A stretch of DNA of 61,503 bases from Candidatus Thorarchaeota archaeon (GTDB lineage Archaea > Asgardarchaeota > Thorarchaeia > Thorarchaeales > Thorarchaeaceae). This document shows positions 21,787 through 49,538 of this stretch, piece by piece. The DNA is taken from positions 1,459,646 to 1,521,148 of the forward strand of contig CP070761.1 of NCBI GenBank assembly GCA_020348985.1. Reading direction: 5' to 3'. How positions within the stretch are numbered: position 1 is the stretch's first letter; each line of letters opens with the position of its first letter. Made by a program: the position numbers and the translations under genes. The notes below the pieces were generated by a model. It did no database searches, had not been told where the DNA came from, and worked only from the letters and a program-made list of their open reading frames with translations.

Positions 21787-23304
21787 CTATAGTCCCAGCA
21801 GTGCTGCAGCCGCTTCAAATGCGTAGTCGAGAACTGCACCGGGCAGGATGAACAGCGCGATGACTGCTACGACGCAGAAGATCACTGCTAGCAGTGGCAC
21901 ACGAGCCAGCCTTAGCTGCGAGCTGTCAATAGGCTCCACCATATAGCAGTACCTAAGCACTCTCAGATAGTAGCCGAGTGAGAAGACTGAATTTAGGAGG
22001 CCTATGAATGCGAGCCACCACATTCCCACTTCCACAGCGCTCTGAAACAGTATAAGCTTGGACCAGAATCCCGCAGTGAGTGGCATTCCAGCAAGAGCTA
22101 GCATGAGTAGTGAAAGCATCGCCGCAATGGCAGGTGCTCTCTTGGATAGCCCAGCGAGGTCATCATAGGTTATCGACTTGGCAAGCTTTAGCGACATAGC
22201 CCAGATGAGAATGAACGCACCAGTCTTCATCAGAGCGTGAGTGAACGCATGGAACATGGCGGCTGCAGCCCCTAATTGTGTGGCGGCGGCGACGCCGATG
22301 AACAGATACCCCATCATGGCAATCGAGGAGTAAGCGAACATCCTCATGATGTCACGTTGAGCTAGTGCCAGGACGTTTCCGATGATCATTGTCAGGATAG
22401 ACACGACGACAATCATCATCGACCAAACCGGCAGTCCTTCTCCAACCTTCGCTAGGATGAAGCCTACCATCAGTATTCTCACTAGAGCGCTTATGCCTGT
22501 CTTCTTCGTTGCTCCTGCAAGATATGCCACAACACTTCCGTCTGCTGTGGCGTAGGTGTCTGGTACCCACATCCAGCCTGGGAAGATACCAATCTTGAAA
22601 CCAAATGCAATTACAAACAGTATCATGGCCAATGTCAGCGGAAATGCAGCCTCACCAAGAGGAGCGACGTAGACTGTTCCAACAGTGCTTGCTAGTTGAG
22701 CAAGGGAGGTCTCTCCGGTCACTCCGTAGACAAGCGAAATACCAAAGACCATCAACATAGTCGAGAGGAGCCCCATTACGAAGTACTTGACTGCACCATC
22801 GACTGCACCCTTGTGCTTTCCAAGCGCTGCAAGCACGTAAGTTGGCGTTGACATGAGCTCCCACGCTATGAACAGTGCAACAAGGTCTGTTGCCATTACT
22901 ACCCATATTGCGCCTGCAAATGACATCAGGAGCAAGAAGTTGTATGTCCCTTCTGATCCTCCGTAAATCGTCGCCGACATGAGGACTAGGACAGCAACCA
23001 TCAGAATGATGTAGATGAAGAAGTCCGCAAAGGCACCTCTGACGAACAGACCCCCAAACGAGGTCCCATACACAGATGGATCAAATATCAACATCTCAAG
23101 TGTAGCAAGAATAACGCCAATGAAGCTCAGCCCGAGCGGATTGAACCTCAATCCCACAACCACCGCGATTAGTGAGAATACAACAAGTGTGATTGCCGGC
23201 AGGGATGCTATCCATTCCATGGGCACTACTGCAAGTATCAGGTCTCTCAAGGGTGTAAGTAGGAGTCGAAGCGAGTCGAGGATACTACTGAATAGCTGAA
23301 TCAT
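21787..23304 (-). CDS. nuoN: Complex I-like antiporter subunit NuoN
   Basis: DLVALFIAWELMS, GAVKYFVMG, GFKIGIFP..MWVPDTY and RMFAYSSIA; last gene of the operon. Confidence 0.9.
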   Translation of the reverse strand: MIQLFSSILDSLRLLLTPLRDLILAVVPMEWIASLPAITLVVFSLIAVVVGLRFNPLGLSFIGVILATLEMLIFDPSVYGTSFGGLFVRGAFADFFIYIILMVAVLVLMSATIYGGSEGTYNFLLLMSFAGAIWVVMATDLVALFIAWELMSTPTYVLAALGKHKGAVDGAVKYFVMGLLSTMLMVFGISLVYGVTGETSLAQLASTVGTVYVAPLGEAAFPLTLAMILFVIAFGFKIGIFPGWMWVPDTYATADGSVVAYLAGATKKTGISALVRILMVGFILAKVGEGLPVWSMMIVVVSILTMIIGNVLALAQRDIMRMFAYSSIAMMGYLFIGVAAATQLGAAAAMFHAFTHALMKTGAFILIWAMSLKLAKSITYDDLAGLSKRAPAIAAMLSLLMLALAGMPLTAGFWSKLILFQSAVEVGMWWLAFIGLLNSVFSLGYYLRVLRYCYMVEPIDSSQLRLARVPLLAVIFCVVAVIALFILPGAVLDYAFEAAAALLGL

Positions 23305-24848
23305 TATGGAACCACCCCTAGAATGACATTGACGATTGGTTCGATGTAGTCGAGTATCAGATCAGGCCAGAAGCCCAGCAATAGAACTGGAAGCATCATC
23401 AGGATTGGAGCAATCAGGTCACTCCACGGAGCCTCAGTCACTGGCCTTTCTTCCACAGGGTCGCTGAACACGATTCTGTTCAATGTCCATAGAAGGTACC
23501 CTACTGTCAGGAAGACTCCCAGTGCGATTAGAGATGCCCAGATGTATATCCTGACAGAGCCGAACAAGACGAGTGCCTCAGCAATGAAGCCGCTGAAGCC
23601 TGGCAGTCCGAAAGCGGCAAATGACGCAAGTATCAGAACCATTGACATCCTAGGCGCCCCTGCCATGAGACCCTTGACGTCTGGAATCTCTCGAGTTCCA
23701 GCGGCGTACTTGAGCTGGCCGGCCATGATGAACATCACTGATATTATCGTTCCATGTGAGAACATCATGAAGACAGCACCCATGATAGCAAAGCTAGCAA
23801 CACCCGCAAACTCAGGACTGCCGATTGCACCTGCAGCGACTGCAACTCCTAGCAAGACCCAAGCCATGTGGTTTATCGATGTGTACGCCACCATGCTCTT
23901 GAGATCAGTCTGGGCGAGTGCCGTGAATGCTGCGTAGATGCAAGTGAAGATGGCAAGGAGTGCAAATGGAATAGCAAGCCGAGCCATAGCTGCCGGGACA
24001 AGCCAAAGACCGAGTCTTATGAACGTGTAGCCGCCCATCTTCAGCAAGATGCCTGCCAGGATGACAGAGCCGGGGGTTGGTGCCTTCACATGCGCCCACG
24101 GTAGCCAGTTGTGTAGTGGCCAGACGGGGAGTTTGACACCGGCTCCCATGAAGACTGCGAGTGCGAATCCAATCTGGACCAGTGGTGCTAGGCTCAGCCC
24201 CTTCAGAACAACCATGTTGAAGGTGTTGCCTCCTAGGAAGAACAGTGCGAAGAAACCAACGAGCATTGCTGCCGAGCCCAGGTGAGTGTAAATGAAGAAC
24301 TTGACCGCTGCGTGTTCGCAACCTTCCTCACCCCATTGTCCAATTATGAAGAACATGGGTATGAGGACAAGCTCCCAGAACACGAAGAAGCTGATCAAGT
24401 CAAAAGACAGGAAGACTCCAAGGAGTCCGGTCTCCAGTAGAAGGAATAGTGCATAGTACGATCCCTGCTCCTTGTTGATGTGGTTTGAGCTTAGAGCTGC
24501 GATGAACACAACCAGGTTCGACAGGATGGCCATGACGATCGAGAGACCATCGACACCCAACAGGATCTGCAGAACCGGGGCACTCTCTCCGACGCCAAGG
24601 CGCCCCATCTCGAAGCCCCACCCGAAAACACCACCATTGGCGTCAACCTGTGCAGCCGGATCCATGGCCAGGGCAAGGATTATGGAATACAGAAGCTCGA
24701 AACCAGTTACAAGCAACGCGATGATTCTCGCACCTCTGCCCCGCACGATGGCGGCCAAGACTGCGCCTACTAGGGGGAGCACTATCAGTAGGAATAGCGG
24801 ATTGATTCCGAGCGCATCAATGAAATTCACTGCAAAGTCAAGTTGCAC
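23304..24848 (-). CDS. nuoM: Complex I-like antiporter subunit NuoM (M1)
   Basis: GVDGLS, FFVFWELVLIPMFFIIG.WG, KFFIYT, KLPVWPLHNWLP.AH, LLKMGGY, YTSINHM and GLPGFSGFIAE. Confidence 0.93.
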   Translation of the reverse strand: MQLDFAVNFIDALGINPLFLLIVLPLVGAVLAAIVRGRGARIIALLVTGFELLYSIILALAMDPAAQVDANGGVFGWGFEMGRLGVGESAPVLQILLGVDGLSIVMAILSNLVVFIAALSSNHINKEQGSYYALFLLLETGLLGVFLSFDLISFFVFWELVLIPMFFIIGQWGEEGCEHAAVKFFIYTHLGSAAMLVGFFALFFLGGNTFNMVVLKGLSLAPLVQIGFALAVFMGAGVKLPVWPLHNWLPWAHVKAPTPGSVILAGILLKMGGYTFIRLGLWLVPAAMARLAIPFALLAIFTCIYAAFTALAQTDLKSMVAYTSINHMAWVLLGVAVAAGAIGSPEFAGVASFAIMGAVFMMFSHGTIISVMFIMAGQLKYAAGTREIPDVKGLMAGAPRMSMVLILASFAAFGLPGFSGFIAEALVLFGSVRIYIWASLIALGVFLTVGYLLWTLNRIVFSDPVEERPVTEAPWSDLIAPILMMLPVLLLGFWPDLILDYIEPIVNVILGVVP

Positions 24849-24849
24849 T

Positions 24850-27120
24850 TCAGATCACCCCCAAGCTGATAAGAATGACAATGGCCAGCAACCCGATCCC
24901 GAAGATGAGCATCCCGACGTAGTCATTAATCATGCCAGTCTGAGCAGTCTGGCTAGACTCAGAGGCACTAACACTCTGAGTTGAGACACCCTCAGCGAAG
25001 CCGTCAACAACGTTGTCGTCGAACCATCTAACCTTCGTGGATATCGTGATGGCAGCACTTGCTGATCTGAAGTCGATTCCATCAATGATTCTATTGTCTA
25101 TCTTGACTCTATACCATTCTGCGAACCTAAGGAACTTGCCGAGAACCCAGTAGTAGAACTCGTTGATGTACCACCGGTGCTTCAGGAAGCTGTAGAGCTT
25201 GCGCCTGGCTCCTCCCTCTGGAATGACTGTGTTTGGAGCGTCTGCCCCTCTGACATAGATGATGTATCCAGGGATTCCGCCAAGTGCCAGTGCACCAAGT
25301 GTAATCACAAACGGTACTAGGCCAGGCATGGTCAGCTTAACCTCGACCATGTGAGACAACGTGTCAATCCACGCCGCTTCAGTTTGAAGTACAATGTTCT
25401 GAATGAACGGAAAGACGATGAATGCGATGATTGTGAAAGCAGCCAGGATGTACAGTGGAATCATCATCGCCGGACCGGGGTCGTGCGGAGTCGAACCATG
25501 AGAATCCTCAGAGTGGTCGCTCTCATGTTCTTCATTGTGTACGGCTGGTTCGTGGTCGTGATCATCGTGTCCTTCGTGGGGCTTGCCGTAGAACACAATA
25601 CCCATGAGTCTGATGCTGTAGAAGATTGTACAGGCAGCAGCCATCACAGCAAAGAAGAATAACAGTGATCCCATCTGATTGAGAAACACTCCTGCTTCGC
25701 CTGCTGCAGCAAGTTCGTAGGTGTACTCAATTATCGAATCCTTCGACCAGAAACCAGAGAATGGTGGTATGCCAGCCAGAGCCAAGACGCCTATCCACAT
25801 TACAGCGAAAGTCTTGGGCATGTGTTTCTTGAGACCGCCCATCTTTGTCATGTACTTCGTATGGACTGCATGTATGACTCCTCCTGCGGATAAGAACAAG
25901 AGTGCCTTGAATGCACCATGACTCACAACGTGTAAGACGCTCGACAAGTATGCTTCTTCACCCGCATGTAACAGATGAGAATCTGCGCCAATTAGAAGAC
26001 CTCCCACACCGATTGCTAGCATCATATAGCCAAGCTGACTCAGTGTCGAGAAGGCCAGTACCTGCTTCAGCTCATTTGATGTCATTCCCATCGTGGCGGT
26101 CATGAAGGCTGTAATCGCTCCAATGACTGCAATTACCAAGAAGAAGGTCTGTGCATCAGCGAGCGAGATGACTTGCAGTGCAGAGATTCCATGGTCTCCG
26201 TTGCCGCTCTCTGCAGTGGCCTCGACCATTGTTATCAAGAAACGGGCGCTGATGTAGACTCCTGCCTTGACCATTGTCGCGGCATGAATCAGAGCCGACA
26301 CTGAGGTCGGACCTGCCATAGCTTCAGGCAGCCATACCTGCAGCGGAGCCTGTCCGGACTTTCCGATTGCGCCCATGAAGATCAGCAGGAAGGTCGGAAT
26401 GAGCATCCCAGCCCCCACCATTGCCTGCCACCAGTGCTGAGCATTGTGTGCCATGTCGGTGAACGAGAATGTCCCTGTAAACATGAACAGAATGAGTATC
26501 CCTCCCAGCATGAAAGCGTCACCGATTCTGGTAACAACGAATGCCTTAGTTCCACAATGAGTGTTGTACTGGCCCTCAGTCTCGAACTGAAGCAGCGGGT
26601 TCTTGGCCTCGTAGCCCGTGGGATCAATCTCCGGTGGGTTCCTCTTGTCGTTCCAGAAGCCGATTAGACCATAGGAACAGAAGCCCATGATTTCCCAGCC
26701 GATGAATCCGATCAACAGGTTGTCACTCAATACGAGTGTGAGCATTCCGCCTCCGAAAGCAAGCATCAGGAAGAAGAAGCGGTTCCTGTCATCCTCATGC
26801 GCCATGTACTCGGTCGAGTAGACGTAGATGAGGAAACAGAGTGTGCTCGCAAGAACAGCCATCACAACTGACAGCGGGTCGAGAAGAACGCCGAACTCTA
26901 GATTCAGTGCCTCAACCCAGACCCAGCTTGTCTGTTGGGCAGTACTGCCTATGTCTGATAGCAGCGACCAACAAAGTATCATTGCGATACCCATGAAGAT
27001 TGCAGGAGTCCAATCCCTCACCTTCTCACTGTATCTACCAACCAACGGTACTAGTAGCGAACCTCCAAGGGGGAGCACAAGGATGAGCCAATAGGGTAGT
27101 CCGAACAGCATCTGATTCAC
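24850..27120 (-). CDS. nuoL: Complex I-like antiporter subunit NuoL (756 aa, extended)
   Basis: GWEIMGFCSY, TRIGD, GKSGQAPLQVWLPEAMAGPTSVSALIHAATMVKAGVY, STLSQLG, FKALLFL, GFWSKD and a C-terminal lateral helix ending QTG..DY. Confidence 0.95.
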   Translation of the reverse strand: MNQMLFGLPYWLILVLPLGGSLLVPLVGRYSEKVRDWTPAIFMGIAMILCWSLLSDIGSTAQQTSWVWVEALNLEFGVLLDPLSVVMAVLASTLCFLIYVYSTEYMAHEDDRNRFFFLMLAFGGGMLTLVLSDNLLIGFIGWEIMGFCSYGLIGFWNDKRNPPEIDPTGYEAKNPLLQFETEGQYNTHCGTKAFVVTRIGDAFMLGGILILFMFTGTFSFTDMAHNAQHWWQAMVGAGMLIPTFLLIFMGAIGKSGQAPLQVWLPEAMAGPTSVSALIHAATMVKAGVYISARFLITMVEATAESGNGDHGISALQVISLADAQTFFLVIAVIGAITAFMTATMGMTSNELKQVLAFSTLSQLGYMMLAIGVGGLLIGADSHLLHAGEEAYLSSVLHVVSHGAFKALLFLSAGGVIHAVHTKYMTKMGGLKKHMPKTFAVMWIGVLALAGIPPFSGFWSKDSIIEYTYELAAAGEAGVFLNQMGSLLFFFAVMAAACTIFYSIRLMGIVFYGKPHEGHDDHDHEPAVHNEEHESDHSEDSHGSTPHDPGPAMMIPLYILAAFTIIAFIVFPFIQNIVLQTEAAWIDTLSHMVEVKLTMPGLVPFVITLGALALGGIPGYIIYVRGADAPNTVIPEGGARRKLYSFLKHRWYINEFYYWVLGKFLRFAEWYRVKIDNRIIDGIDFRSASAAITISTKVRWFDDNVVDGFAEGVSTQSVSASESSQTAQTGMINDYVGMLIFGIGLLAIVILISLGVI

Positions 27121-27121
27121 C

Positions 27122-28657
27122 TCATGGAGTTGGAATTATGTTAGTCACTGCCTCCACTGCTGGCATGATTATGTCGACTGCCAGACCTGGGAAGATTCCG
27201 AAGATTACGATTAGTACACCCAGAATGATCTGGGGGATTGTCATAGAATTCGGACCCTCCTTCGCGTCCTCCAGGGAGTCTGGATGAGGGCCAAGGAACA
27301 CCTTCCAAAGATAACGCAGCATGTATCCTGCACTGACAATCGAGCTTGATACGGCAAGCACGGTCAGGATCAGGAATGGAAGGTCGCCTGTAGCCTGCCA
27401 TGTCTGGAATCCTCCTAGGAACATCATCCATTCGCTGGCGAAACCAGACAATGGAGGACTCCCAGCAATGCTCATTGCACCTATTGCAGCAGCAAAAGCT
27501 GTAATCGGCATCTTGTTTGAGAGACCTCCCATCAGGTTGATGTCCCTCAGGCCGGTTTGATGTATAACCGTTCCAGCCGTCATGAACAACAGGCCCTTTG
27601 AGAAGGCGTGATTGATGAGATGGAACATACCTCCTGCGGCGCCGTAGGTTGAGAAAACGCCTAGCGCAAACAGGACATAGCCCATCTGTGAAACTGATGA
27701 GTAAGCGAGAAGTCGCTTTATGTCAATCTGAGCAAGCGCCATGAAGCCACCATAGAACATGGTGATTACTCCCAGCGCGCTAATCAGGAAAGCGAGGTCT
27801 CTGGCTGCAGAGAAAAGCATGATATTGCCAAACCGCATCAAGGCGTAGGCACCGGTCTCAATCATTGCGCCTGAAAGGAGTACTGAGATTGGTGTTGGGG
27901 CTTCAGCGTGAACTGGTGGGAGCCACCAATGAATCGGGAAAACGGCCATCTTGACCAAGAAGCCTGCGGCCATCAGAATGAAGATGACTTTGATGAGTCC
28001 TGATGCTATGAGCTCCTGAATGAGAGGCCCTCCAGCAAACAGAATTGATTGAATGTCCGCGATAACGAAGCTCCCGGTGTAGAAGAACAGAAGACCGAAT
28101 CCAACCAGAATGGCTAGAGCTCCCGATTGTGTGTAGAGCCAGAACTTCATCGCCGTACGTCTCTTGGTCTCAGGCAATCCCCAGAATAGAATCAGGAAGT
28201 AGCTGGGTACAAGCATGAGCTCCCATGCGATGAAGAATTCGATGAGGTTCGTTGCCAACGTTACCCATTGCATGCCCATCAGGAAGAACAGCGTGTTGGC
28301 GAAGAACGTGGGCTTGTTGTGAGCGTGATCGGTATACCCTACCGCATAGACCACCGACAGAAATCCCAGAACAACAACAGCAAATGTGATCGGAAACGCT
28401 ATTCCGTCTAGGAAAAGACCAAACCCACCAAGAACCTCAGACCATTCTGCTTCTTCCAGGGCAACTCCACCTTCAACCATAACACGGTAGAATGGAGGCG
28501 CCATAAGCAGGGCTGCAAACCCAGAGATTCCCACTGAAATCTTTCCAGCACTGTTTCCCTCGGCAAATCGTCCTCTAAGAACATAGATGGCAAGTCCACC
28601 TAGGAATAGCACTGCCAGTGACAGGGTCATGAATGGGAACTCGAAAGTCTGCATCAT
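27122..28657 (-). CDS. nuoM: Additional NuoM-like antiporter subunit (M2)
   Basis: FFIAWELMLVPSYFLILFWG, MKFWLYT, VKMAVFPIHWWLP.VH.EAP, LAYSSVSQMG and GSPPLSGFASE; ATGA overlap with nuoI. Confidence 0.85.
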   Translation of the reverse strand: MMQTFEFPFMTLSLAVLFLGGLAIYVLRGRFAEGNSAGKISVGISGFAALLMAPPFYRVMVEGGVALEEAEWSEVLGGFGLFLDGIAFPITFAVVVLGFLSVVYAVGYTDHAHNKPTFFANTLFFLMGMQWVTLATNLIEFFIAWELMLVPSYFLILFWGLPETKRRTAMKFWLYTQSGALAILVGFGLLFFYTGSFVIADIQSILFAGGPLIQELIASGLIKVIFILMAAGFLVKMAVFPIHWWLPPVHAEAPTPISVLLSGAMIETGAYALMRFGNIMLFSAARDLAFLISALGVITMFYGGFMALAQIDIKRLLAYSSVSQMGYVLFALGVFSTYGAAGGMFHLINHAFSKGLLFMTAGTVIHQTGLRDINLMGGLSNKMPITAFAAAIGAMSIAGSPPLSGFASEWMMFLGGFQTWQATGDLPFLILTVLAVSSSIVSAGYMLRYLWKVFLGPHPDSLEDAKEGPNSMTIPQIILGVLIVIFGIFPGLAVDIIMPAVEAVTNIIPTP

Positions 28658-29085
28658 CGGAATCTTCTCCCTCGCCACTCAAGTGGGTCACGTTCAAGAG
28701 TCTCAATTTTGTCGGGGCCATAGAGGAGGTCGTCTCTTTCACCCTCGCTGAGGTCGACTATCGGTGTGTGGAATAGTGAATCGAAGCGACATGCTTCGAC
28801 ACATAGACCGCAGAAAATGCACCTTGAGTAGTCGAAGTATAGCGCTGCGTCCTTCTCGTACATCTTGTCCTCTTTGTCGATTCGAATTGCCACTACTGGA
28901 CAAGCACGTACACACTGTGAGCAAGCTGTACACTTCTCACGAATGTGGATGTGCCGACCCCTGGTTCGCTCAGGATAGTACCTGTCCTCGAAGGGGTAGA
29001 GGCTAGTGAAGGGTCTCACGAACACTTGTCTGAAGACATGTTTGAAGATTCTGAACATGTCGCCTAGTACGCTAAAGAACCCCAT
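28654..29085 (-). CDS. nuoI: NuoI, 2x[4Fe-4S] subunit
   Basis: T.LYP.E...RTRGRH, CTACSQCVRACP and CIFCGLCVEAC. Confidence 0.93.
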   Translation of the reverse strand: MGFFSVLGDMFRIFKHVFRQVFVRPFTSLYPFEDRYYPERTRGRHIHIREKCTACSQCVRACPVVAIRIDKEDKMYEKDAALYFDYSRCIFCGLCVEACRFDSLFHTPIVDLSEGERDDLLYGPDKIETLERDPLEWRGRRFR

Positions 29086-29089
29086 CTTT

Positions 29090-30226
29090 CTATCCTCCTA
29101 TGACAAGAAGCGCCAGTCCTGGGAAGTAGGCAATCGCCAGGAGGGCAACGACGACGTTCAACACTGACAGTGGAAGTAAGTACTTCCAGCAGTAGCGCAC
29201 AATTTGATCCTGCCTGAGTCTGTAGAACGATGATGTCACTATTACAAAGAAGAAGAACACAACCAGGAACTTGATAATGAAATTGACAACTGCGGGAATG
29301 AACGGTAGTCCCCAGAAGCCTCCAAAGAATAGTGTCACCAGTAGTGCGCTGTAAAGCAACTGCTCGGCAAATTCAGCGAAGTAGGTCATTGTGAAGTAAA
29401 TGCCTGAGAACTCAGTCCTCCACCCGAAGATGATCTCCGAGTCTGCCACCGGTGCGTCGAACGGAAATGTTCCAACCGAGGCAATCGCAGCCACCAAGAA
29501 TGTGACCATGTTCACTGGCAGAAGAACCACGTACCAGATGCCTGCTTGAGCCTGTGCGATTCCCATCACACTCAACGATCCAGCTAGTAGTGCTGGGCCC
29601 ACCGATGAGATAATCATCGGAATCTCGCATGCAAACTGATTGTTTGCTGCTCTGAATCCGCCTATCAATGAGTACTTCGAACCAGAAATCCATCCCGATA
29701 GAAGCGCTATCACGGGCACTGCTGTTAGGAAGGCAAAGACAAGGACTAGGCTGACTGAAAGGTCTGCAATGAACCAAGAGCTATCCCAGGGGATGAAGGC
29801 GAAAGGCAATAGAACTATGATAAGCAAGAATGATGGTAGGAACCTGTACATCCAGCGTCTGGCTTTCTCTGGGATGATGGTCTCCTTTGAGATGAGCTTT
29901 ATAGCGTCCGCAAACAATTGGAGTCCGCCGTACTTCCCAATGTGAAAAGGCCCTCTTCGCGCTTGTATTCGTCCCCACAACTTCCGCGTAGACCATACTG
30001 CAAATATAATCCCCATCACGATGAAGATTAGCCCAGGAAATATGACCGCCTTGAACAAGAAGCCGATGTTGTAGACAACAACACTCCAGACGTAAACGAA
30101 GATTGCCCAGATGCTGCTGAGCCACCAGAAGATGGCTCGGACCCACCACGAAATGACATCGTGAAGCCAGGTCGGTATTCCAAAGAGCCAGTCGACAATT
30201 CCATCAATCCATGTCTGCATTGTCAT
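29090..30226 (-). CDS. nuoH: NuoH membrane subunit
   Basis: RIQARRGP, GGLQLFADAIKLISKE, SKYSLIGGFRA, PFDAPVADSEI..G..TEFSG and RLRQDQ. ATG 30226 follows a GGAGGTGA SD. Confidence 0.93.
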   Translation of the reverse strand: MTMQTWIDGIVDWLFGIPTWLHDVISWWVRAIFWWLSSIWAIFVYVWSVVVYNIGFLFKAVIFPGLIFIVMGIIFAVWSTRKLWGRIQARRGPFHIGKYGGLQLFADAIKLISKETIIPEKARRWMYRFLPSFLLIIVLLPFAFIPWDSSWFIADLSVSLVLVFAFLTAVPVIALLSGWISGSKYSLIGGFRAANNQFACEIPMIISSVGPALLAGSLSVMGIAQAQAGIWYVVLLPVNMVTFLVAAIASVGTFPFDAPVADSEIIFGWRTEFSGIYFTMTYFAEFAEQLLYSALLVTLFFGGFWGLPFIPAVVNFIIKFLVVFFFFVIVTSSFYRLRQDQIVRYCWKYLLPLSVLNVVVALLAIAYFPGLALLVIGG

Positions 30227-30234
30227 GTCACCTC

Positions 30235-31371
30235 CTAGCGATCCCACCATCCCGGATACGGGTCCAAGCTGCCGAATATTACGATGAAGTCCGCGAACTT
30301 CGAGCTGGGAACGAGATGTTTCAGAGAGTAGTATGAGGAGAAGCAAGGGCCCCGTATCTTGGCCCGCCAAGGAGTCTGCGCCTTGTCCTGTGTCTTCAGC
30401 CATAGTGTGGTAACTCCTCTTGTACCTTCTACTCGGCCGTAGGCTTCTCCTTCTGGAAGTCTGTTGGCCTTGGCTCTGTGCTTCGGGTCGATGATTGGGC
30501 CATCTGGAACCTGAGGCAAGAGCTGCTTGATAATGCCCAATGAGGTCTCGACTTCGAGAAACCTCTGAACCATTCTGTCATACGCGTCGCTTTCCCCAGG
30601 GTGGTCTTCATTGTGAACAGTCGGAACTTCCCAATCACACATATCATATGCAAGACTGGGATCTGGATCATCTTTGCGCAGGTCCATGGGGACACCACAA
30701 GCTTTGATGTTTGGACCTGAGAGACCCCACTTGAGACCCTGCTCTGCTGTAAACTGACCGATGCCCTGTGTTCTAACCCTGAATGTTGGCCCCCTTAGTA
30801 GCATATCTTTGAACTTGGGTAGACGATCCTCGATACGGTCCATTGCTCTCTCGAGCTTCGCGATAACACCTTCATTGAAGTCATACTTGACGCCGCCTGG
30901 GGTGTTGTAAGATACTGCATGACGAGAACCTGAAAGCTCTTCAAAAGCGTCAAGGAAGAATTCTCTATCAACCCATGGCCACAAGAGCATTGTGAAGAGA
31001 CCTAGCTCTGCGGCAAACTGACCCCACCAGAACTGCAAGCTGTGAATCCTACTTGCTTCCATCATTATTGTGCGCATGACCTTGGCACGCTCAGGAACTT
31101 CGAGTCCGGCAATCTTCTCAACTGCAGTCACGTACGGATATTCTGCCAAGAATGCCTCTAGCATGCAGAGCCGCTCCATTATGAGCGCGCCCTGTCTGAA
31201 GTTTCTGAACTCCATGACCTTCTCCGCAGACCTGTGGAAGTAGCCTGCGTTGGGATCACATTCCACGATGTAGTCGCCGACCAGAGTCAGTTTCGTCGCC
31301 CATCCGTGAGCGGAAACGTGCTGTGGACCGAACCAGATCTCGATTGCATCATCAACAATGTCGGTTTTCAT
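30235..31371 (-). CDS. nuoD: NuoD-like subunit without NiFe ligands
   Basis: FGPQH..AHG, GYFHRSAEK, VPERA, GGV..D, GEAYGRVE..RG and C-terminal SLDP....DR; no CxxC pairs. Confidence 0.9.
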   Translation of the reverse strand: MKTDIVDDAIEIWFGPQHVSAHGWATKLTLVGDYIVECDPNAGYFHRSAEKVMEFRNFRQGALIMERLCMLEAFLAEYPYVTAVEKIAGLEVPERAKVMRTIMMEASRIHSLQFWWGQFAAELGLFTMLLWPWVDREFFLDAFEELSGSRHAVSYNTPGGVKYDFNEGVIAKLERAMDRIEDRLPKFKDMLLRGPTFRVRTQGIGQFTAEQGLKWGLSGPNIKACGVPMDLRKDDPDPSLAYDMCDWEVPTVHNEDHPGESDAYDRMVQRFLEVETSLGIIKQLLPQVPDGPIIDPKHRAKANRLPEGEAYGRVEGTRGVTTLWLKTQDKAQTPWRAKIRGPCFSSYYSLKHLVPSSKFADFIVIFGSLDPYPGWWDR

Positions 31372-31937
31372 TCTGGCGACTCTCCTCCTTCCTTGGGCGT
31401 CGTCGATGGCGTAGGCCGCGCAGGCCTCTCTGCCGCTGGGGGTTTTGGTTTCGGTTGTGGGAGACCGGACTCCTCAAGTCGACTTCTATCGGTCTGGAAA
31501 CTCTTCCTTAGAGGATATTTGCCTTCGAGCTCTTCGGGCAGCAGCAGCAGTCTCAAGTCTGGATGTCCGCTGAACCCGATTCCAAACATCTCATGAGTCT
31601 CACGTTCGTGCCACTCGAATCCCGGATAGATGTCTGATACCGATTCTACTTCGGGTGCTTCACCTTCTATTGGAACTCTTAGCTGACATAGAAGCTTGTT
31701 CGAATGCGACCAGAATATGTAGATCAACTCGTACTGGTCATTCTCAAGATCAACAGCAAACATTGACTCGGGAAGAAAGTCGGAGACTGACTCATCAAGC
31801 AATGCGACGATGGCCCGTATCTTGTCGGCAGGCATGACAAGCTCGATTCTGTTTCCCTCTAGTGGATTGGCTTGAACCTCTGGGAACTTGTTCACAATAT
31901 CGCGCCCCAGAGTAGATGCCGAACCAGATGATTTCAT
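31368..31937 (-). CDS. nuoC: NuoC subunit
   Basis: SVSDIYPGFEWHERETHEMFGIGFSGHPDLR...YPLRKSF. Confidence 0.93.
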   Translation of the reverse strand: MKSSGSASTLGRDIVNKFPEVQANPLEGNRIELVMPADKIRAIVALLDESVSDFLPESMFAVDLENDQYELIYIFWSHSNKLLCQLRVPIEGEAPEVESVSDIYPGFEWHERETHEMFGIGFSGHPDLRLLLLPEELEGKYPLRKSFQTDRSRLEESGLPQPKPKPPAAERPARPTPSTTPKEGGESPE

Positions 31938-31941
31938 GTGC

Positions 31942-32262
31942 TCACTCACTCTGCATCTCCTCCTGGATACCGGGGCGTCCAAGATCGACAGTGCCGTATC
32001 TGCTATTGTACATGAGCATCAAAACCATCGCGAGAGCTGTGTGAGCTGCCGCGACTGAAATCACTAGAATCACGAGAGCCTGCCCTGTAAACGTGAAAGT
32101 CTCCATGTAGAGGGAGAGGGCGACAAGCGCGACCGTTACACCATTGGCCATGATCTCTGCGCCAATTAGGACTCGAATCAGGTTACGTTTGACAGCCATG
32201 CCATATGCGCCGAGACCAATCATCATGAAGGAGAATGTTAGATACCAAGACAGGGGGATCAT
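31942..32262 (-). CDS. nuoK: NuoK subunit
   Basis: GAYG...KRNLIRVLIGAEIMANG, GQ.L....SVAAA; 3 TM helices. Confidence 0.9.
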   Translation of the reverse strand: MIPLSWYLTFSFMMIGLGAYGMAVKRNLIRVLIGAEIMANGVTVALVALSLYMETFTFTGQALVILVISVAAAHTALAMVLMLMYNSRYGTVDLGRPGIQEEMQSE

Positions 32263-32930
32263 TCTGCCACCTCCTCCTGCTCATCTTCAGGTTCCTCTGG
32301 ACCATCTACCACCGGTGTTTCGTCCCCACCATCATTCGAGGAACCGATTCCATAGTCCTTGCTCTCTGGGTTCATCCGCTCCGCTTTCTCCATCTTCAGA
32401 ACGGCTATCGCTCCGACTAGCGCTGTAACCATAACAAGAGCAATCATCTGGACGTATATCCCGTGTTCACCCCAAAGCCACACTGCGAGTTGCTCTAGAC
32501 TTTGAGCAAGGTCCACTCGCTGTTGAGGAATACCGGTGTCCCAACCTGCTGGGGCAGGCCATTCATATAGAAGGGCCAGAGCGGCTGCAAATACAACTGC
32601 GAAGATTGAGACAAGAAGTCCCACCCTCCGTTTTGATGGCCCCTCAAATGCCTCCAAGGTCGTATCTTGCGCTCGTGGTAGCAATAGAACGCCGAATATG
32701 ATGAGAACGCTAATACCTCCCGTGTAGACCGCGATTTGCATACCGGCGATAAAGGGAGCTTCCAACAACAAGAAGAAGCCAGCTACAAGGGATGCCATGA
32801 TTCCAAAGGAGAACACTGCATAAACGATGTCCCTGTGTTCCAAAGCCAGATAGGCCAGGAAGAGGACTATGGCGGCAATCGCAATGAACTCAACTGGTTC
32901 GAGAAGATCTACTAGTTCGTTCCCTTGCAT
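32259..32930 (-). CDS. nuoJ: NuoJ subunit
   Basis: LLEAPFIAGMQIAVYTGGISVLIIF and LVGAIAV; ATG 32930 follows a GGAGGT SD. Confidence 0.9.
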   Translation of the reverse strand: MQGNELVDLLEPVEFIAIAAIVLFLAYLALEHRDIVYAVFSFGIMASLVAGFFLLLEAPFIAGMQIAVYTGGISVLIIFGVLLLPRAQDTTLEAFEGPSKRRVGLLVSIFAVVFAAALALLYEWPAPAGWDTGIPQQRVDLAQSLEQLAVWLWGEHGIYVQMIALVMVTALVGAIAVLKMEKAERMNPESKDYGIGSSNDGGDETPVVDGPEEPEDEQEEVAE

Positions 32931-32931
32931 C

Positions 32932-33363
32932 TCAGTGACCTCCAGAATGTCCTGTGCTATGGGCACGGGCTTCCTTTCGCTCCTGGTAGAGTTCAAGGGT
33001 CTCCTTGCCATCCAATGTTGTTTGAGGCAGTGTCCTCATCACGAAGTTGATTCCAAGCATGATAATGACGACGAAAATCAGAGTCTGCCAGACAACAGGG
33101 ATGTCGAGCCTGAGTGACGATGACGCAAGCAGCCATAGGAATGCGCCCATGACGTCGACGACAACGAAGAGTATCGTGTAAATGAAGTAGTTGTACGGGT
33201 AGGCAATTCGAGCGGGACCGATAGGCTCCTCACCACATTCATACGAACTCAGTTTCTCACTGTTCTGCAAAACATGGGGGCGCAATACCCATGATGCAAG
33301 CAACATCACAACAACGAGGACAACACCAAGTAACGCCCAGATCAAGACTGGGATAAAGTCCAT
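32932..33363 (-). CDS. nuoA: NuoA subunit
   Basis: K.SSYECGEEP.G.A and Y.IYTILFVVVDV; 3 TM helices. Start is 33363 or 33375. Confidence 0.92.
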   Translation of the reverse strand: MDFIPVLIWALLGVVLVVVMLLASWVLRPHVLQNSEKLSSYECGEEPIGPARIAYPYNYFIYTILFVVVDVMGAFLWLLASSSLRLDIPVVWQTLIFVVIIMLGINFVMRTLPQTTLDGKETLELYQERKEARAHSTGHSGGH

Positions 33364-33554
33364 GAATAGTCTCATCTTCGGGAACCGTCCCAATGTTTTG
33401 CCAATGGTTGAGCCCTAGGTGGGCGGTCTACCCACTAGGGTTGAGAGGGCCGCGTACAAACAGCCTAGATAAAAACGCTTCGCCATTTTTCACAAAGGAG
33501 TTATATAGAGCATCGAAATGAGAACGCCGCAGTACTGAGCTGGACTCAGGCTAG

Positions 33555-33926: not shown

Positions 33927-34541
33927 TCAGTCGCCTGAGGAAGGTTCCTCTTCTTCCTTAGGCTCTTCTTTCGTTTCTGGCATATCGACTTCTTCAGGCT
34001 CAATCTTCGACGGCTCACCCTGAACAGTTGCTGGTTCTTCTGGAGTACCCTCTTCTGAGACTTCCTCTTCGCCCTCTTCGGGTTCCTCTGGCTCTTCTGG
34101 CTCAGGGATGTACTTGGCCTGAATCGCCGCCACATCCATAATCCCTGGTGTGACTCTTTCCTCAGGGGAATGCTGGAGTGCAAAGCCACCAGCAAGAAGT
34201 AACGGAGCACCGACTCCCCAAGTCGCAAGGAACACTCCTCCACCAACTTGGAACGAGATCATGACGTAGATCAGAGCAGCGAAAACACTCAATCCCAGAG
34301 CCGGAGCCTTTCTCCTGCCCCGAGCTGGTCTTAGATAGCCCAAGAAGAAGAACGCCATGACTAATGGCAGAAGCAGAATAAGGGAAGTACCAGCAAAGGC
34401 CCCTGCTTCGGCGAGAATAGCGTTCACGTACGCTGGGTCCGTTATTGGCAGGTATAGCATGAAATGGAAGTAGTAGGCAGCGAGGAGCATGAAGCCTAGC
34501 CATGGCACGCAATACTGGTCTGTGTCTTCACGAAGAGTCAT
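33927..34541 (-). CDS. 4-TM membrane protein with an acidic Glu/Pro tail, downstream of the FAD-NuoB fusion
   Basis: ATG 34541 after a GGAGG SD; 4 TM helices, then a PEEPEEPEEGEEE tail. Confidence 0.7.
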   Translation of the reverse strand: MTLREDTDQYCVPWLGFMLLAAYYFHFMLYLPITDPAYVNAILAEAGAFAGTSLILLLPLVMAFFFLGYLRPARGRRKAPALGLSVFAALIYVMISFQVGGGVFLATWGVGAPLLLAGGFALQHSPEERVTPGIMDVAAIQAKYIPEPEEPEEPEEGEEEVSEEGTPEEPATVQGEPSKIEPEEVDMPETKEEPKEEEEPSSGD

Positions 34542-34552: not shown

Positions 34553-36547
34553 CTACTGCATCATCCCCATGGCATCCTGGTTCTCGTACTTCATCTGCCA
34601 ATGTGTCGTGCCTGCACGAATCTTGTTCTGCAAGATGATATGTGCCCGCACAAAGTCAACTGGCTTGGGCGGACAACCGGGCAGGTAGACGTCAACCGGT
34701 ACAACCTTGTCAGGCGGCGTCATGAGCGAGTAGCCGTCCCAGAAGAGACCCCCACTTGCAGCACACTGACCGAACGACATGACGTACTTCGGCTCGGGCA
34801 TCTGCTCGTAGATTCGTCGAAGCCTTGGCGCCATCTTCTTCGTAAGAGATCCTGAGATCCACAGTACGTCGCATTGCCGAGGTCCGAATAGAGGCAGCAT
34901 TCCGAATCGCTCAATATCCCATCTTGACGCCACTGCGGCCGCACCGTCAACCATGCAACAGCCAAGTCCGTACTGGACCGGCCATGGGCTGTGAGCTCTC
35001 CCCCATCTAAGCATCCACTTCAGTGGCGGGACATTCTGCAGCCACTTGAGCAATATCGGTGCAATGCGGCCGAATCCGTTCCTGAAGAAGTCATAGAATA
35101 TCCAGAGGAAGTACTTGCCGATTCTGAGAATGAATGGAAGCCAATAGGCAAACACCTTGCCTGGGTTCGAGATTTCCTTCGGGTCCCACTTCAGCTTGGC
35201 GGCGCGGATCTTCGCAAGCCGTCGCTTACCAAAGTAGGTCGATGCGTAGTTGGCGAACCATATTCCCGTAGAGTGAGGATGTCCACCGTGACGCTGTGCA
35301 ATCTTGAAGATGACGAAGCTCTGTGCCCAGCTGAACATGAAGAAACGTCGACGCTCGTCTTCGAGGAAGTATCCCATCATCGTAACGCCGTTCTTGGACG
35401 TGACATAGCCATCGATTCCAGCGCGAGCTGAAGCCTGCTCAAACTGGAAATCACTTAGGATTGGTTCAAGGTTTTCAAGCGGAGCAAACGCCTGTCCTAC
35501 AACCAAAGTTGGGCCGCCTTTCTTAACACGCATAGGATAGTAGCGGTCATGCCATTCGTGTTCGGCTACATGCTTGTCATATACAACACCTTGGAACTCC
35601 TCTGCCACGTGCCGAACTAGGGCGTGGCCCTCTTCGACTTCTTCATCAGTTCCGTCATAGGCAACCAAGACCATCCCGTGATGAACAGGGAATGGGAACT
35701 TCTCTTCACTTTCCCAGTTTGCCTTCTTGAGGTCAGTGTACTTGCTCTCTTCGAACTTGATTGTATGAGGCGTCGGTCCTTCCTCAACGATCTTCTCAAT
35801 GGCGAAGACCATCAAGTAGTTCTCGGGAAAACTAGCCACAATCGGTTTTATCGGCGTCAACGGCTTAATCTTGAGTTTGACTTTGGTTATAATCCCAAGA
35901 ATCCCCTCGGTGTCGCACCAGAGGTCAGTATCCTTGCTTCTGATGATTCTACCTTTTGGCAGTACAGCCTCGACTTCAATCACGTTGTCGTTGATTGTGC
36001 CATACTTGAGTGAGCCGATACCGTCTCCGCCTTGTGAAACCCATCCGCCGACCGTGGCAGATAATCCAGATGATGGATAGGCTCTCAGATCCAAGTCGTG
36101 TCGGTTCAACTCGAACTGAAGATTGGCCCAAGAGATGCCAGGCTCAACAGTAACGGTCAGATTTTCTTTGTCGATTTCAACAACAGAGTCCATCCTGCGC
36201 ATGTCAACAACAATGCCGCCCTTTCTCGGAATTGCACCGCCATAACCCGAGGTCCCTGCGCCTCTTGGCACAAGCGGGATTTTGTGTTTGTTTGCGAATT
36301 CGTAGAGGGTCTTGATCTCCTGAGGGGTCTCTGGCTGAACGATAGCATCGGGGTTCGGGTTCATCAGCCACCCGACTTGCTTGGGCAACGACCCGACATC
36401 CATCCCTTGAATAACGAGTTCATGCTTCTCAGTGAGAAGCCGGTCACCGAAGGTCTCGGCGAGTTTAGAGGCAAGTTTCTTTTTCAGCGTCACGCAGGGA
36501 CTCTCCATACTGTCTGCTGATGGTCGGGGGGTGGATTCCTCCGACAT
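34553..36547 (-). CDS. nuoB: Fusion of a VAO/GlcD-type FAD-binding oxidoreductase (N-terminal ~470 aa) and NuoB (C-terminal ~160 aa)
   Basis: FAD domain: PRGAGTSGYGG, VEPG, ATVGG, GILGIITKV, NPGK. NuoB domain: SPWP..YGLGCC, DIERFG, PRQCD, RIYEQMPEPKYV.SFGQCA.SGG, VPVDVYLPGCPP. One continuous ORF. Confidence 0.92.
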   Translation of the reverse strand: MSEESTPRPSADSMESPCVTLKKKLASKLAETFGDRLLTEKHELVIQGMDVGSLPKQVGWLMNPNPDAIVQPETPQEIKTLYEFANKHKIPLVPRGAGTSGYGGAIPRKGGIVVDMRRMDSVVEIDKENLTVTVEPGISWANLQFELNRHDLDLRAYPSSGLSATVGGWVSQGGDGIGSLKYGTINDNVIEVEAVLPKGRIIRSKDTDLWCDTEGILGIITKVKLKIKPLTPIKPIVASFPENYLMVFAIEKIVEEGPTPHTIKFEESKYTDLKKANWESEEKFPFPVHHGMVLVAYDGTDEEVEEGHALVRHVAEEFQGVVYDKHVAEHEWHDRYYPMRVKKGGPTLVVGQAFAPLENLEPILSDFQFEQASARAGIDGYVTSKNGVTMMGYFLEDERRRFFMFSWAQSFVIFKIAQRHGGHPHSTGIWFANYASTYFGKRRLAKIRAAKLKWDPKEISNPGKVFAYWLPFILRIGKYFLWIFYDFFRNGFGRIAPILLKWLQNVPPLKWMLRWGRAHSPWPVQYGLGCCMVDGAAAVASRWDIERFGMLPLFGPRQCDVLWISGSLTKKMAPRLRRIYEQMPEPKYVMSFGQCAASGGLFWDGYSLMTPPDKVVPVDVYLPGCPPKPVDFVRAHIILQNKIRAGTTHWQMKYENQDAMGMMQ

Positions 36548-36685
36548 AAAAACCTAGCGAGATTCAGGCACCGGGTCGGACCACTCGACAGCGATTTTGG
36601 ACGTTTGTCATAGAGAAAAAGTATTAGTGCAGGTTTGTGGGGAACCCGACGACGGAAAGAAGTATGCTTCTGAGGTCTTGAAACA

Positions 36686-37912
36686 ATGAAGTTCCCTCTG
36701 CTTGAACAGTACGGTCTCCAGGACCAGCCTTTTACTTGTGCCCAATGCAGCTTCTGTCAAGTAGGAAATGGTGCATGCCCGACATACAAGGTCAAGCGTC
36801 GTGACAGTTATTCTGGAAAGGGCAAGATGATTTTGGCTAGGACACTCATCCAAGGCAGAATCAAACCCTCTGAAGGGCTCGAGGGTTTGAGAGATGCAAT
36901 CTTTGGGTGCACTCTTTGCGGAGGCTGTGAGGAAATCTGTCAGGTCGACATTCCTTTCGTCAAGATCTATCAGCTTCTTCGAGCAGACTTCCTCAGGAGA
37001 GGAATGTGGCCGGAAGAGCTTGTTCCAATGAAAGAGACCCTTGTCGATGACTTCAACGTTCAGGGTCAGGATAATGATGATAGAGTTGAAGGATGGTCAT
37101 ATTGGCATCCAGATGAAGATGCGCTTCTTGAGAAGGTTGGACAGAACGCGAAGACTGCCTTCTTCTTTGGGTGCAACTCATCATTTAGAGGAGTACCCAT
37201 CCAAGGAACAATTGCGACACTCCTAATAATGGACAAGATTGGCGAGGACTACACAGTTCTCGGAGATGAAGAGTGGTGTTGTGGTGCCCCGTTGATAATG
37301 ACAGGTGACTTCGATTCGGCGCGCAAGTTCGCTGAGCACAACATCAAGCAATACAAGGAGCTTGGTGTACAACGGATAGTAACCAATTGTCCTGGTTGTT
37401 ACAAGATGTGGGCACATGAGTATCATGAATTCCTAGACATTGACCATCCATTCGAGGTTGTCTATGGTGCTCAGTATTTCTCACGCCTCATTGATGAAGG
37501 AAAGCTCGCTGAATTCACCAACCCTCTTGATGTGACTGTTACATTCCACGATGGTTGTGACGCGGGTCGAAACTCAGGCATCTATGAGGAACCACGGAAA
37601 GTCCTCGAGCATCTGCCAGGTGTTACACTCGAAGAGCTACCTCACAACAAAGCCAACTGCTATTGTTGTGGATCCGGTGGAGTACTAAGGCCAGTTGACG
37701 CCGACTTTGCGCTGGAGATTAACAAGCTCAAAGTCGAAGACATCGAGCAGACAAGCGCAGACTGGGTTATTGCCGCTTGTCCATCGTGTGTTGACTTCAT
37801 GAATGATCAACTGCCCCAGACGGGGTCTCAGAAACGAGTAAAGGACCTCTCAGTGCTCGTTGCTGAAGCTTTGGGCCTAACGTGGGATGGGCTTGACGAG
37901 ATCTACGGCTAA
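36686..37912 (+). CDS. HdrD/GlcF-like Fe-S protein (2x[4Fe-4S] plus two CCG domains), copy 1
   Basis: CAQCSFC..CP, CTLCGGCEEIC, FGC..WCCG..CPGC and HDGC..CCG..CPSC. Confidence 0.9.
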   Translation: MKFPLLEQYGLQDQPFTCAQCSFCQVGNGACPTYKVKRRDSYSGKGKMILARTLIQGRIKPSEGLEGLRDAIFGCTLCGGCEEICQVDIPFVKIYQLLRADFLRRGMWPEELVPMKETLVDDFNVQGQDNDDRVEGWSYWHPDEDALLEKVGQNAKTAFFFGCNSSFRGVPIQGTIATLLIMDKIGEDYTVLGDEEWCCGAPLIMTGDFDSARKFAEHNIKQYKELGVQRIVTNCPGCYKMWAHEYHEFLDIDHPFEVVYGAQYFSRLIDEGKLAEFTNPLDVTVTFHDGCDAGRNSGIYEEPRKVLEHLPGVTLEELPHNKANCYCCGSGGVLRPVDADFALEINKLKVEDIEQTSADWVIAACPSCVDFMNDQLPQTGSQKRVKDLSVLVAEALGLTWDGLDEIYG

Positions 37913-37965: not shown

Positions 37966-39228
37966 ATGAGCGAGCTGTCAATCAGAGACCGTATCAAGAA
38001 GAAGAAATGGGTCTACGAAGAGATCGTCGAAAGAGTCCCGCCATTCAGATGGTTACCGCCAACTCTAGACGTCGTCGCTCAACTTCTACTTGTTGAGGCA
38101 GTGGGGATAATCGCATTCATCTACTTTCAGATGCCCCTTGAAGCTGTCATATTCGGTTCGCTCGCAATTGTCTACACAGTTGTCTGGTCTGCAGGATGCT
38201 TGAACATCATTCCTTGGGTCAGACGCCTGAGGGACCCAACAAATGAACAAGAATTGCGAGTTCTGCAAGCCTACAAGGAACGACTTCTTCTTAGTCGCCC
38301 AATCGAGCTAGCTGGAGGTCTCCTTTGTTTTGCCGGAGTGATTACGATTCTCTTCCTCAATCAGGATGTCTTGAGAGACTTCCTTGGTAGTGGCTTCGGG
38401 AATCCTTTACTGTTTGTTCTGGTGGGCGTGCTGGCATGGGATATCAGCTACAGACTGGGGCTTTCATTCGTCACAACTATGCTTGCGGCAAACAGATCCA
38501 TCCGACTGAGTAACGCTGCAAACAGAAGAAGAGGATTAGAATACACTGCCTATACCGAAGTCCAGACTTTGAAATCACTTGATCTGGTGAACCTATACTG
38601 GGGGGCATCAGCGGTTCTGCTCCTCCCAATAGCAAGCAGACTCCCTCTTCTGTTCTATGGCCTCCTCGCCTTTTTAGGAGCGATTCTGGGATTCTCGGTC
38701 CTAAGCTTGATGATGATGGAGACCGTTCCATGGCTTCCTCCTGATGTAGAGAGCATCCTGCATCACGAACGGTTTGCCTATGTTGCTTTGTGTTCCAAGA
38801 AGCAGACACACGTGACGCCAGTAGTGTTTGTCTATGATGGGAAGCACCTCTACTTCGCCATATCTGTGGCTTCCGCCAAGTACAGGATTCTCAAGAAGAA
38901 TGACAAGATAGCCGCGCTTGTGGATCTTCGAGACCGAAGGAATCCCATGAACAACCGGGCCGTTATGCTGCGAGGAAAAGGCATGATTCTCGGAGAGCTA
39001 ACGCCGCTGGGTACATTGAGACTCTTTATCTATGGATTGTGGATGCTCTGGGTACGATCTCTCTTCTGGAGGAAGTACCCACTCTACATGAACTACTATG
39101 AAGAACGTACTCATGAACTGCCCCTTGCTTGGCAGAACAAACCGTTCCTGTCAAGACTTATGGTTCGTATAGCGGTTGAGAAGATAACTTACTGGAGGGC
39201 GGCGAAACCGTTGCCACTCAGGGTGTGA
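37966..39228 (+). CDS. Multi-TM membrane protein with a C-terminal pyridoxamine 5'-phosphate oxidase-like split barrel
   Basis: ~6 TM helices, then FAYVAL..HVTPVVFVYDG..LYF....SAKYRILKKNDKIAALVD..AVMLRGKG. Confidence 0.75.
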   Translation: MSELSIRDRIKKKKWVYEEIVERVPPFRWLPPTLDVVAQLLLVEAVGIIAFIYFQMPLEAVIFGSLAIVYTVVWSAGCLNIIPWVRRLRDPTNEQELRVLQAYKERLLLSRPIELAGGLLCFAGVITILFLNQDVLRDFLGSGFGNPLLFVLVGVLAWDISYRLGLSFVTTMLAANRSIRLSNAANRRRGLEYTAYTEVQTLKSLDLVNLYWGASAVLLLPIASRLPLLFYGLLAFLGAILGFSVLSLMMMETVPWLPPDVESILHHERFAYVALCSKKQTHVTPVVFVYDGKHLYFAISVASAKYRILKKNDKIAALVDLRDRRNPMNNRAVMLRGKGMILGELTPLGTLRLFIYGLWMLWVRSLFWRKYPLYMNYYEERTHELPLAWQNKPFLSRLMVRIAVEKITYWRAAKPLPLRV

Positions 39229-39232
39229 TCGC

Positions 39233-41155: not shown

Positions 41156-41159
41156 TAAA

Positions 41160-42623: not shown

Positions 42624-42627
42624 AACG

Positions 42628-43749: not shown

Positions 43750-43794
43750 AGACAACCCACAGAAATAAATGAGAGTAAATTTGGAAGTGTAACC

Positions 43795-46421: not shown

Positions 46422-46425
46422 TGCC

Positions 46426-49018: not shown

Positions 49019-49027
49019 GTGATGACT

Positions 49028-49525: not shown

Positions 49526-49538
49526 GGTGCTGAAGCAG

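Follow-up and report, generated by a model that had tools for sequence, protein, structure and literature searches.

Head-less, 11-subunit relatives of complex I occur widely among archaea and bacteria, and the nature of their electron partners is a long-standing question. The idea, put forward for Methanomassiliicoccales, that such a complex directly carries a protein of the HdrD type has to our knowledge never been structurally or genetically proven. Multi-copy Dld/HdrD pairs together with a NuoEFG-less complex I have been reported from Sif- and Jordarchaeia (PMC9723677), and Fpo-associated HdrD/GlcD gene neighborhoods from Korarchaeia, Bathyarchaeia, and Methanomethylicia (PMC10667645). Here, we describe a gene from a Candidatus Thorarchaeota archaeon in which a GlcD-like flavoprotein is fused to NuoB, next to a complex I-like operon that has no nuoB of its own. 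The gene lies in a stretch of 61,503 nucleotides (nt) of contig CP070761.1 (assembly GCA_020348985.1, positions 1,459,646 to 1,521,148, forward strand), the whole of which is referred to below as the window and to which all positions refer unless stated otherwise. As anticipated in the original prediction, which was made from the DNA letters without database searches, no description of a GlcD-NuoB fusion was found in a full-text literature search, although many subscription papers lay beyond that search, so that this absence is not proof. Nor is such a fusion mentioned in the available part of a survey from 2024 that deals with complex I-like clusters in Asgard archaea (10.1101/2024.07.04.601786).

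The fused gene and its parts, including the domain binding flavin adenine dinucleotide (FAD), are as follows (aa, amino acids; pLDDT, predicted local distance difference test).

34553..36547, minus strand: fused gene for a VAO/GlcD-fold flavoprotein, an amphipathic linker, and NuoB (single open frame; Pfam/NCBIfam)
35153..36352, minus strand: FAD domain and cap domain, residues 66-465 (FAD_binding_4 and FAD-oxidase_C in Pfam; AlphaFold2 pLDDT mostly >90)
35018..35152, minus strand: linker, residues 466-510 (45 aa), aromatic-rich, with two amphipathic helices (AlphaFold2, hydrophobic moment, conservation)
34553..35017, minus strand: complex-I-type NuoB domain, residues 511-664 (154 aa; Pfam, NCBIfam, match to NdhK/Nqo6)

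From the first ATG the frame runs for 664 aa without interruption; the gene callers of the databases begin with the GTG at 36493 and so arrive at 646 aa. A chain of 646-664 aa exceeds the size of a stand-alone NuoB (about 150-250 aa), and public databases annotate the fused protein merely as 'NuoB'. Pfam searches assigned FAD_binding_4 to residues 66-203 (E 4.8e-41), FAD-oxidase_C to residues 237-465 (E 3e-11), and Oxidored_q6 (PF01058) to residues 531-635 (E 1.6e-23, 83.2 bits against a cut-off of 27). Residues 511-648 also scored above the NCBIfam cut-offs for NuoB (NF005012, 178.3 with a cut-off of 116; TIGR01957, 170.1 with a cut-off of 142.7), and in comparisons with solved structures NdhK and Nqo6 (E ~1e-43) ranked ahead of MbsJ or MbhJ. 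The predicted N2 ligands, read from the letters as a tandem-Cys GCC, a GxC, and a PGCPP motif, correspond to C530/C531 (GCC), C595 (GQC), and C625 (PGCPP), which can be aligned to the ligands of NdhK and are all kept in every fusion aligned. The AlphaFold2 monomer was confident for the flavodomain and of low pLDDT for the NuoB domain, and its domain orientation and FAD-N2 distance were not used. The genome consists of one contig of 3.16 Mb, for which marker genes indicate 86% completeness, and a profile search bore out for both window and genome that the only NuoB is the C-terminal part of this frame; the other Oxidored_q6 matches belong to two cytoplasmic [NiFe]-hydrogenases, as their small subunits.

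In assemblies from NCBI, JGI, ENA, and Logan, we identified proteins of 646 aa with the same three domains, which fall into about 46 clusters at 90% identity, are 72-100% identical, and are mostly labelled Thorarchaeota. The fused frame is present in at least 55 of 400 genomes of the phylum, all from 12 genera (g1-g12) of the family to which the window belongs, and is accompanied there by the divergent CCG/HdrD-like gene and the nuoAJKCDHIMLMN operon described below. Since an exhaustive HMMER scan of 1.84 billion representative proteins at 50% identity returned one cluster only with the full architecture, distant GlcD-NuoB fusions elsewhere were rejected. An independent per-run assembly contig of 2707 nt spans positions 34930-36700 without indels and so runs from the flavodomain across the linker into the beginning of NuoB. 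Misassembly at the junction and absence from related genomes, two of the doubts raised along with the original prediction, are thereby answered, and an assembly or frameshift artefact is ruled out to near certainty by the ~46 clusters, the at least 55 genomes, and the bridging contig. In one metatranscriptome run, an exact 136-nt piece was found inside the FAD domain, along with pieces of 32 and 34 nt at 34668-34699 and 34779-34812, of which the second is a conserved NuoB motif that is covered too by contigs of other organisms. Taken together, these pieces do not suffice for a claim of expression or of a transcript of full length.

The nearest solved relatives of the flavodomain are LctD (7qh2_C, 1.7e-30) and D-lactate dehydrogenase. 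Its earlier description as a GlcD-type flavoprotein holds for the fold (FAD_binding_4/FAD-oxidase_C) and fails at the metal site: in an alignment to mouse LDHD the His/His/Glu triad is replaced (H398 by Y, H405 by V, and E442 by P), the metal motifs GH.GDGN.H and EHG read GYVTSKNGV and GGHPHSTG, and the glcD equivalog TIGR00387 gives 144 bits, far below its cut-off of 567.9. The YdiJ model gives 81.6 with a cut-off of 1350. The triad is missing across the whole subfamily, including chains of ~1000 aa with FAD, Fe-S, and CCG domains from bacteria and Methanosarcina, and the subfamily has motifs of its own (W..R.YP.R.K..GPS, L.DER, and GG.xYSxG). In the literature searched, no member of this subfamily has an experimentally assigned substrate. 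Judged by these residues, the flavodomain is a VAO/GlcD-type enzyme by fold only, and the canonical metal-dependent 2-hydroxyacid reaction is not predicted for it. A LarA-family (lactate racemase-like) protein is encoded at 4853-6250 on the minus strand, 28 kb from the fusion and unlinked to the operon, and might hint at a metabolism of 2-hydroxyacids.

The linker is a conserved amphipathic helical hairpin. Its helices (residues 469-490 and 492-504) have hydrophobic moments of 0.59-0.63 against a background of 0.20, its conservation among the fusions (0.878) exceeds that of the flavodomain (0.82), and it contains no segment of transmembrane grade. The residue after PPxKW at the junction varies (PPLKWM, PPMKWL, PPLKWI), and there is thus no conserved internal Met. 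The closest paralogs in the window (46426 and 50724; 33-36% identity) each end in two strongly hydrophobic transmembrane segments, as had been noticed from the letters. The further proposal that such an anchor had been swapped for NuoB was not upheld in that simple form, since an unfused flavoprotein ortholog in genus g14 (58% identity, 499 aa) already has the amphipathic tail through PPLKW, followed by a stop. This ortholog is encoded beside its own CCG partner and UbiA/MenA-like, polyprenyl-synthase, and GGR-like genes, in a genome whose complement comprises only an Mbh/Mbx-like complex. The flavoprotein/CCG pair can therefore exist without the pump of the window.

In the sister clade G397, where the nuo genes have the order J-K-C-D-H-I-M-L-M-N (39-54% identity by tblastn), NuoB is a stand-alone protein of 186 aa, 64% identical and encoded away from its nuo run. 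In G003, which belongs to a different family within the phylum, nuoA is followed by a separate nuoB gene (61% identical), and both are divergent from nuoJ-K-N (locus L017). The remaining genera of the window's family have different complexes with free small subunits. The fusion thus had a single origin, within one family. G003 also has a paralog-level GlcD/CCG pair 1.7 kb beyond nuoN; its GlcD was rejected as an unfused ortholog at 35% identity.

The complex I-like pump is encoded downstream of the fusion on the same strand, after a small membrane ORF (open reading frame).

21787..33393, minus strand: nuoA-J-K-C-D-H-I-M-L-M-N operon, 11-subunit-type, NuoEFG-less (Pfam, NCBIfam)
30235-31371, minus strand: NuoD, with H22 (=His38), C69, and M70 (=Tyr87)
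28654-29085, minus strand: NuoI, with all eight Cys and both clusters kept

As predicted, nuoB is missing from this operon, the fusion being located upstream of nuoA at a distance of about 1.2 kb. The membrane arm (21787-28678, minus strand) has four antiporter-like subunits (M-L-M-N) with a long NuoL of 756 aa, a '2M'-type arrangement that is also found in the sister clade G397 (locus L036). The second cluster motif of NuoI ends in C-R (CIFCGLCVEACR) and not in the usual C-P. Compared with Nqo4 of T. thermophilus, NuoD keeps His38 and has Cys69-Met70 in place of Asp86-Tyr87. The corresponding motif reads ER(L/M/I)C(M/L)xE in all ~60 Thorarchaeota clusters, ERxS(M/L)xE in relatives at 50% identity, and DRx(D/E)Y in the ordinary NuoD proteins of the set, and C69 aligns with C85 of MbsL, a relic NiFe ligand. 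In the sulfane-sulfur reductase MBS, C85 is one of two such cysteines that have been retained (PMC7684303). At the level of these residues the quinone site of NuoD is not canonical, and the earlier placement of the flavoprotein beside an 'N2/quinone site' does not stand in that form (Met for Tyr87, relic Cys).

The absence of NuoE, NuoF, NuoG, and FpoF that had been read from the window was confirmed in part. No such domains were found in the other large window ORFs scanned, and NuoE and NuoF had no match genome-wide, where NuoD occurs in one copy. A solitary FrhB/FpoF-like gene (Fer4, FrhB_FdhB_N, and FrhB_FdhB_C; 356 aa), the sole gene of this type in the genome, is however located at ~1531100-1532170 of the contig (plus strand), ~10 kb past the right end of the window and ~35 kb from the operon, and may serve as an input subunit from there. 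With regard to a membrane carrier, the search of the genome for menaquinone head-group genes yielded neither MqnA/D nor MqnC nor a true MenB; six matches to the MenB model are below cut-off and have frames of enoyl-CoA-hydratase size. ComA (PF02679, coenzyme M synthesis) was not found in the genome either, and Mcr is not expected and was not searched for. As read from ORFs only, the genome also has an MvhD/MvhG/MvhA-like cluster, next to which lies an HdrA-like Fe-S ORF.

The following genes around the fusion bear on its possible partners.

36686..37912, plus strand: HdrD/GlcF-like Fe-S protein, divergent, probable partner of the flavodomain (Pfam, synteny, motifs, orthologs)
33927..34541, minus strand: small membrane protein between the fusion and nuoA, in no Pfam/NCBIfam family (~3-4 transmembrane segments, acidic Glu/Pro-rich C-terminal tail)
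55901-57040, minus strand: MenA-like prenyltransferase (TIGR00751 barely above cut-off)
56831-58222, plus strand: polyprenyl synthase (profile match)

The CCG protein at 36686 contains a pair of 4-Cys ferredoxin motifs along with two CCG 5-Cys motifs, both of them complete, all Cys being invariant, and resembles TfrB, GlpC, TmcB, and HdrD in profile comparison. Its orthologs parallel those of the fusion (64-100% identity within Thorarchaeota, next 36%), and the synteny of CCG gene, fusion, and nuo operon is kept in loci L008 and L009. In a 74%-identical relative the order is divergent CCG gene, fusion, small ORF, and nuoAJKCDHIML onward. The best non-Thorarchaeota relatives of the flavodomain (32-38% identity) are single chains with FAD, 2x[4Fe-4S], and CCG domains, and this joining of the parts in one chain supports a partnership of the two proteins. 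The divergent CCG protein, singled out in the original prediction by its position, is thus probably the conserved partner of the flavodomain, as suggested by synteny and by the matching set of orthologs. Four further flavoprotein/CCG pairs are found in the window (41079-55899), and the genome has 36 CCG-domain matches in about 18 CCG proteins, a large HdrB/HdrD-like expansion. Directly after the CCG gene, positions 37966-39718 (plus strand) encode a fusion protein that combines a DUF7530 membrane domain with a PNPOx-like flavin domain, followed by a second PNPOx-like protein; this pair is not at the matching position in locus L008.

The small membrane ORF is found at the same place in all related loci (29-38% identity), and its constant position between the fusion and nuoA makes it a candidate clade-specific subunit. 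In the fused lineages, polyprenyl-synthase and GGR-like reductase genes adjoin the CCG/flavoprotein pair, to which unfused lineages add a UbiA/MenA-like gene. Cytochrome c maturation genes for a CcmA-like ABC ATPase, CcmB, and a CcmC-like protein are located in the same island of the window (58290-60394, plus strand), implying that this Asgard archaeon produces c-type cytochromes.

The likely surroundings of the NuoB N-terminus can be judged from other Asgard families, where NuoB-containing ORFs of ~668 aa turned out to be NuoI-NuoB-NuoD fusions.

L018:2576-4582, minus strand: NuoI-NuoB-NuoD chain (Pfam Fer4, NuoI-like; Oxidored_q6; Complex1_49kDa)
L019:960-2960, minus strand: NuoI-NuoB-NuoD chain (same Pfam domains)
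L021:3443-5455, plus strand: putative NuoI-NuoB-NuoD chain (from its size and NuoI-like N-terminus)

Because the subunits follow each other in this order in a single chain, the N-terminus of NuoB must lie near NuoI, and a module tethered to it would be located near NuoI and the membrane surface.

The reading that we tentatively prefer, as quite possible though short of probable, is that the fusion tethers a flavoenzyme/HdrD-like module acting on the membrane pool beside the substrate chamber of the pump. The flavodomain and the HdrD-like protein (2x[4Fe-4S] and two CCG clusters) would form a two-subunit monotopic oxidoreductase that gives electrons to, or takes them from, a prenylated carrier in the membrane. 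Through the amphipathic hairpin, the flavoprotein would be held at the N-terminus of NuoB, the last Fe-S subunit of the head-less pump, and the enzyme would thus sit where the Q-module meets the membrane, next to the substrate chamber and in the vicinity of NuoI. The pump, which at NuoI would either be driven by ferredoxin or drive it, and the flavoenzyme would then make up one supercomplex with a shared local carrier pool. The unfused autonomous ortholog, the transmembrane-anchored paralogs, and the constant prenyl-carrier gene neighborhood favor this membrane-pool scheme, in which the coupling to a carrier, the substrate, and the direction taken by the electrons are putative. Several points weigh against it. 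Two carrier-reducing enzymes would gain little from a tether unless one of them runs in reverse. The quinone-binding Tyr is lost from all ~60 Thorarchaeota NuoD clusters, and the pump may therefore not use quinone at all. Since no menaquinone head-group pathway was found, the membrane carrier is hypothetical. Production as one polypeptide is a prediction from the frame.

Alternatively, the flavoprotein and its HdrD-like partner could be wired electrically into the NuoI/NuoB Fe-S chain, whether for input or for output, which we consider possible but on the unlikely side. As an output module, given much the same rather low probability, electrons would pass from ferredoxin through NuoI to the HdrD-like protein and the flavin and on to a disulfide or organic acceptor, making the complex a quinone-free ferredoxin:acceptor pump. 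The missing Tyr87 of NuoD and the missing Men/Mqn head-group pathway fit this proposal, as do the two complete HdrB/HdrD-type CCG motifs of the partner with its matches to TfrB/HdrD-type models, the Mvh-like cluster with the HdrA-like ORF, and the about 18 CCG-domain proteins of the genome. Nevertheless, the heterodisulfide version is weakened, since ComA was not found and Mcr is not expected; N2 is buried at the NuoB/NuoD interface in complex I structures, so that an exit to an external cluster is not obvious; and the unfused ortholog works without this pump. A precedent is the direct interaction of Fpo-like complex and HdrD proposed for Methanomassiliicoccales (PMC7374477).

An input module, as put forward in the original prediction, in which a substrate would be oxidized at the FAD and electrons would pass through the CCG clusters to NuoI/N2 and the acceptor of the pump, thereby substituting for NuoEFG/FpoF, is unlikely. 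It would account for the lack of NuoE/F in the genome and of FpoF in the operon, and it agrees with the fusion being the only NuoB, with the position of the NuoB N-terminus near NuoI as judged from the NuoI-NuoB-NuoD chains, and with the ferredoxin-like 2x[4Fe-4S] domain of the partner. However, NuoI with both clusters could accept ferredoxin as in other 11-subunit enzymes, which would make an extra input unneeded, and the flavodomain is without the 2-hydroxyacid metal site. A donor at the level of lactate would moreover give little driving force for four antiporter-like subunits, and here too the unfused ortholog functions without the pump.

A fusion with no meaning for electron transfer, serving co-assembly or membrane targeting or giving a polyprotein that is cleaved or internally initiated into flavoprotein and NuoB, is very unlikely: subunit fusions without new chemistry are common (NuoCD and NuoBCD, with NCBIfam models for both), the full-length chain is predicted from the frame, and the RNA is the 136-nt piece in the FAD domain, but the linker is more constrained than the flavodomain, the junction has no conserved internal Met, and the fusion has been retained across 12 genera.

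The flavoprotein partner of an HdrD-like protein is here covalently tied to NuoB and has been kept across 12 genera, which makes the fusion a concrete, purifiable target for studying how redox modules that use neither NADH nor F420 couple to the pump. If the direct wiring were true, the complex would represent a new class of complex I-type pump with a built-in, substrate-specific flavin/CCG head instead of NuoEFG/FpoF, and it would be the first case in which the genes themselves prove direct docking of HdrD-type modules to complex I homologues of the head-less type. With four antiporter-like subunits, His38 without Tyr87, a relic Cys, and no menaquinone pathway found, the pump also bears on the stepwise evolution from MBH/MBS to complex I in archaea related to eukaryotes.

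Among the described systems, the Fpo-like complex and HdrD of Methanomassiliicoccales, a proposed energy-converting ferredoxin:heterodisulfide oxidoreductase, is likewise of the 11-subunit type without FpoF/NuoEFG (PMC7374477). As in its HdrD, the partner in Thorarchaeota has 2x[4Fe-4S] and two CCG domains and no HdrE/cytochrome-b anchor, and direct physical association is the idea in both cases. The association is genetic and, through the flavoprotein-NuoB chain, covalent in Thorarchaeota, whereas in Methanomassiliicoccales the interaction is assumed and not encoded. Thorarchaeota further differ in the added VAO-fold FAD domain, in that ComA was not found, and in the Asgard host. Compared with canonical NuoB/Nqo6/PSST/NdhK, the Thorarchaeota NuoB has an additional N-terminal flavoprotein and linker of ~510 aa, its gene is located outside the nuoA-N run, and its partner NuoD is without Tyr87. 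The domain set is the same as in GlcDF/Dld-II-type enzymes, in the FAD+(Fe-S) chains of ~1000 aa, and in YdiJ, but it is split over two genes, and unlike in dehydrogenases with FAD, Fe-S, and CCG domains the C-terminus of the flavoprotein continues into NuoB, the His/His/Glu triad being absent in its subfamily. A core subunit of the Q-module is also part of a fused frame in NuoCD, NuoBCD, and NuoI-NuoB-NuoD, but these fusions join core to core, while the Thorarchaeota gene joins a core subunit to an unrelated flavoenzyme. The best solved match of NuoD is MbsL of the Pyrococcus MBS (8e-58; PMC7684303), with which it has an R-x-C-x-x-E motif in common and, like it, no equivalent of Tyr87; in contrast to MBS, the Thorarchaeota complex keeps His38, a complex-I-type NuoB with tandem Cys, and a NuoL/M/N arm rather than an Mrp-type one.

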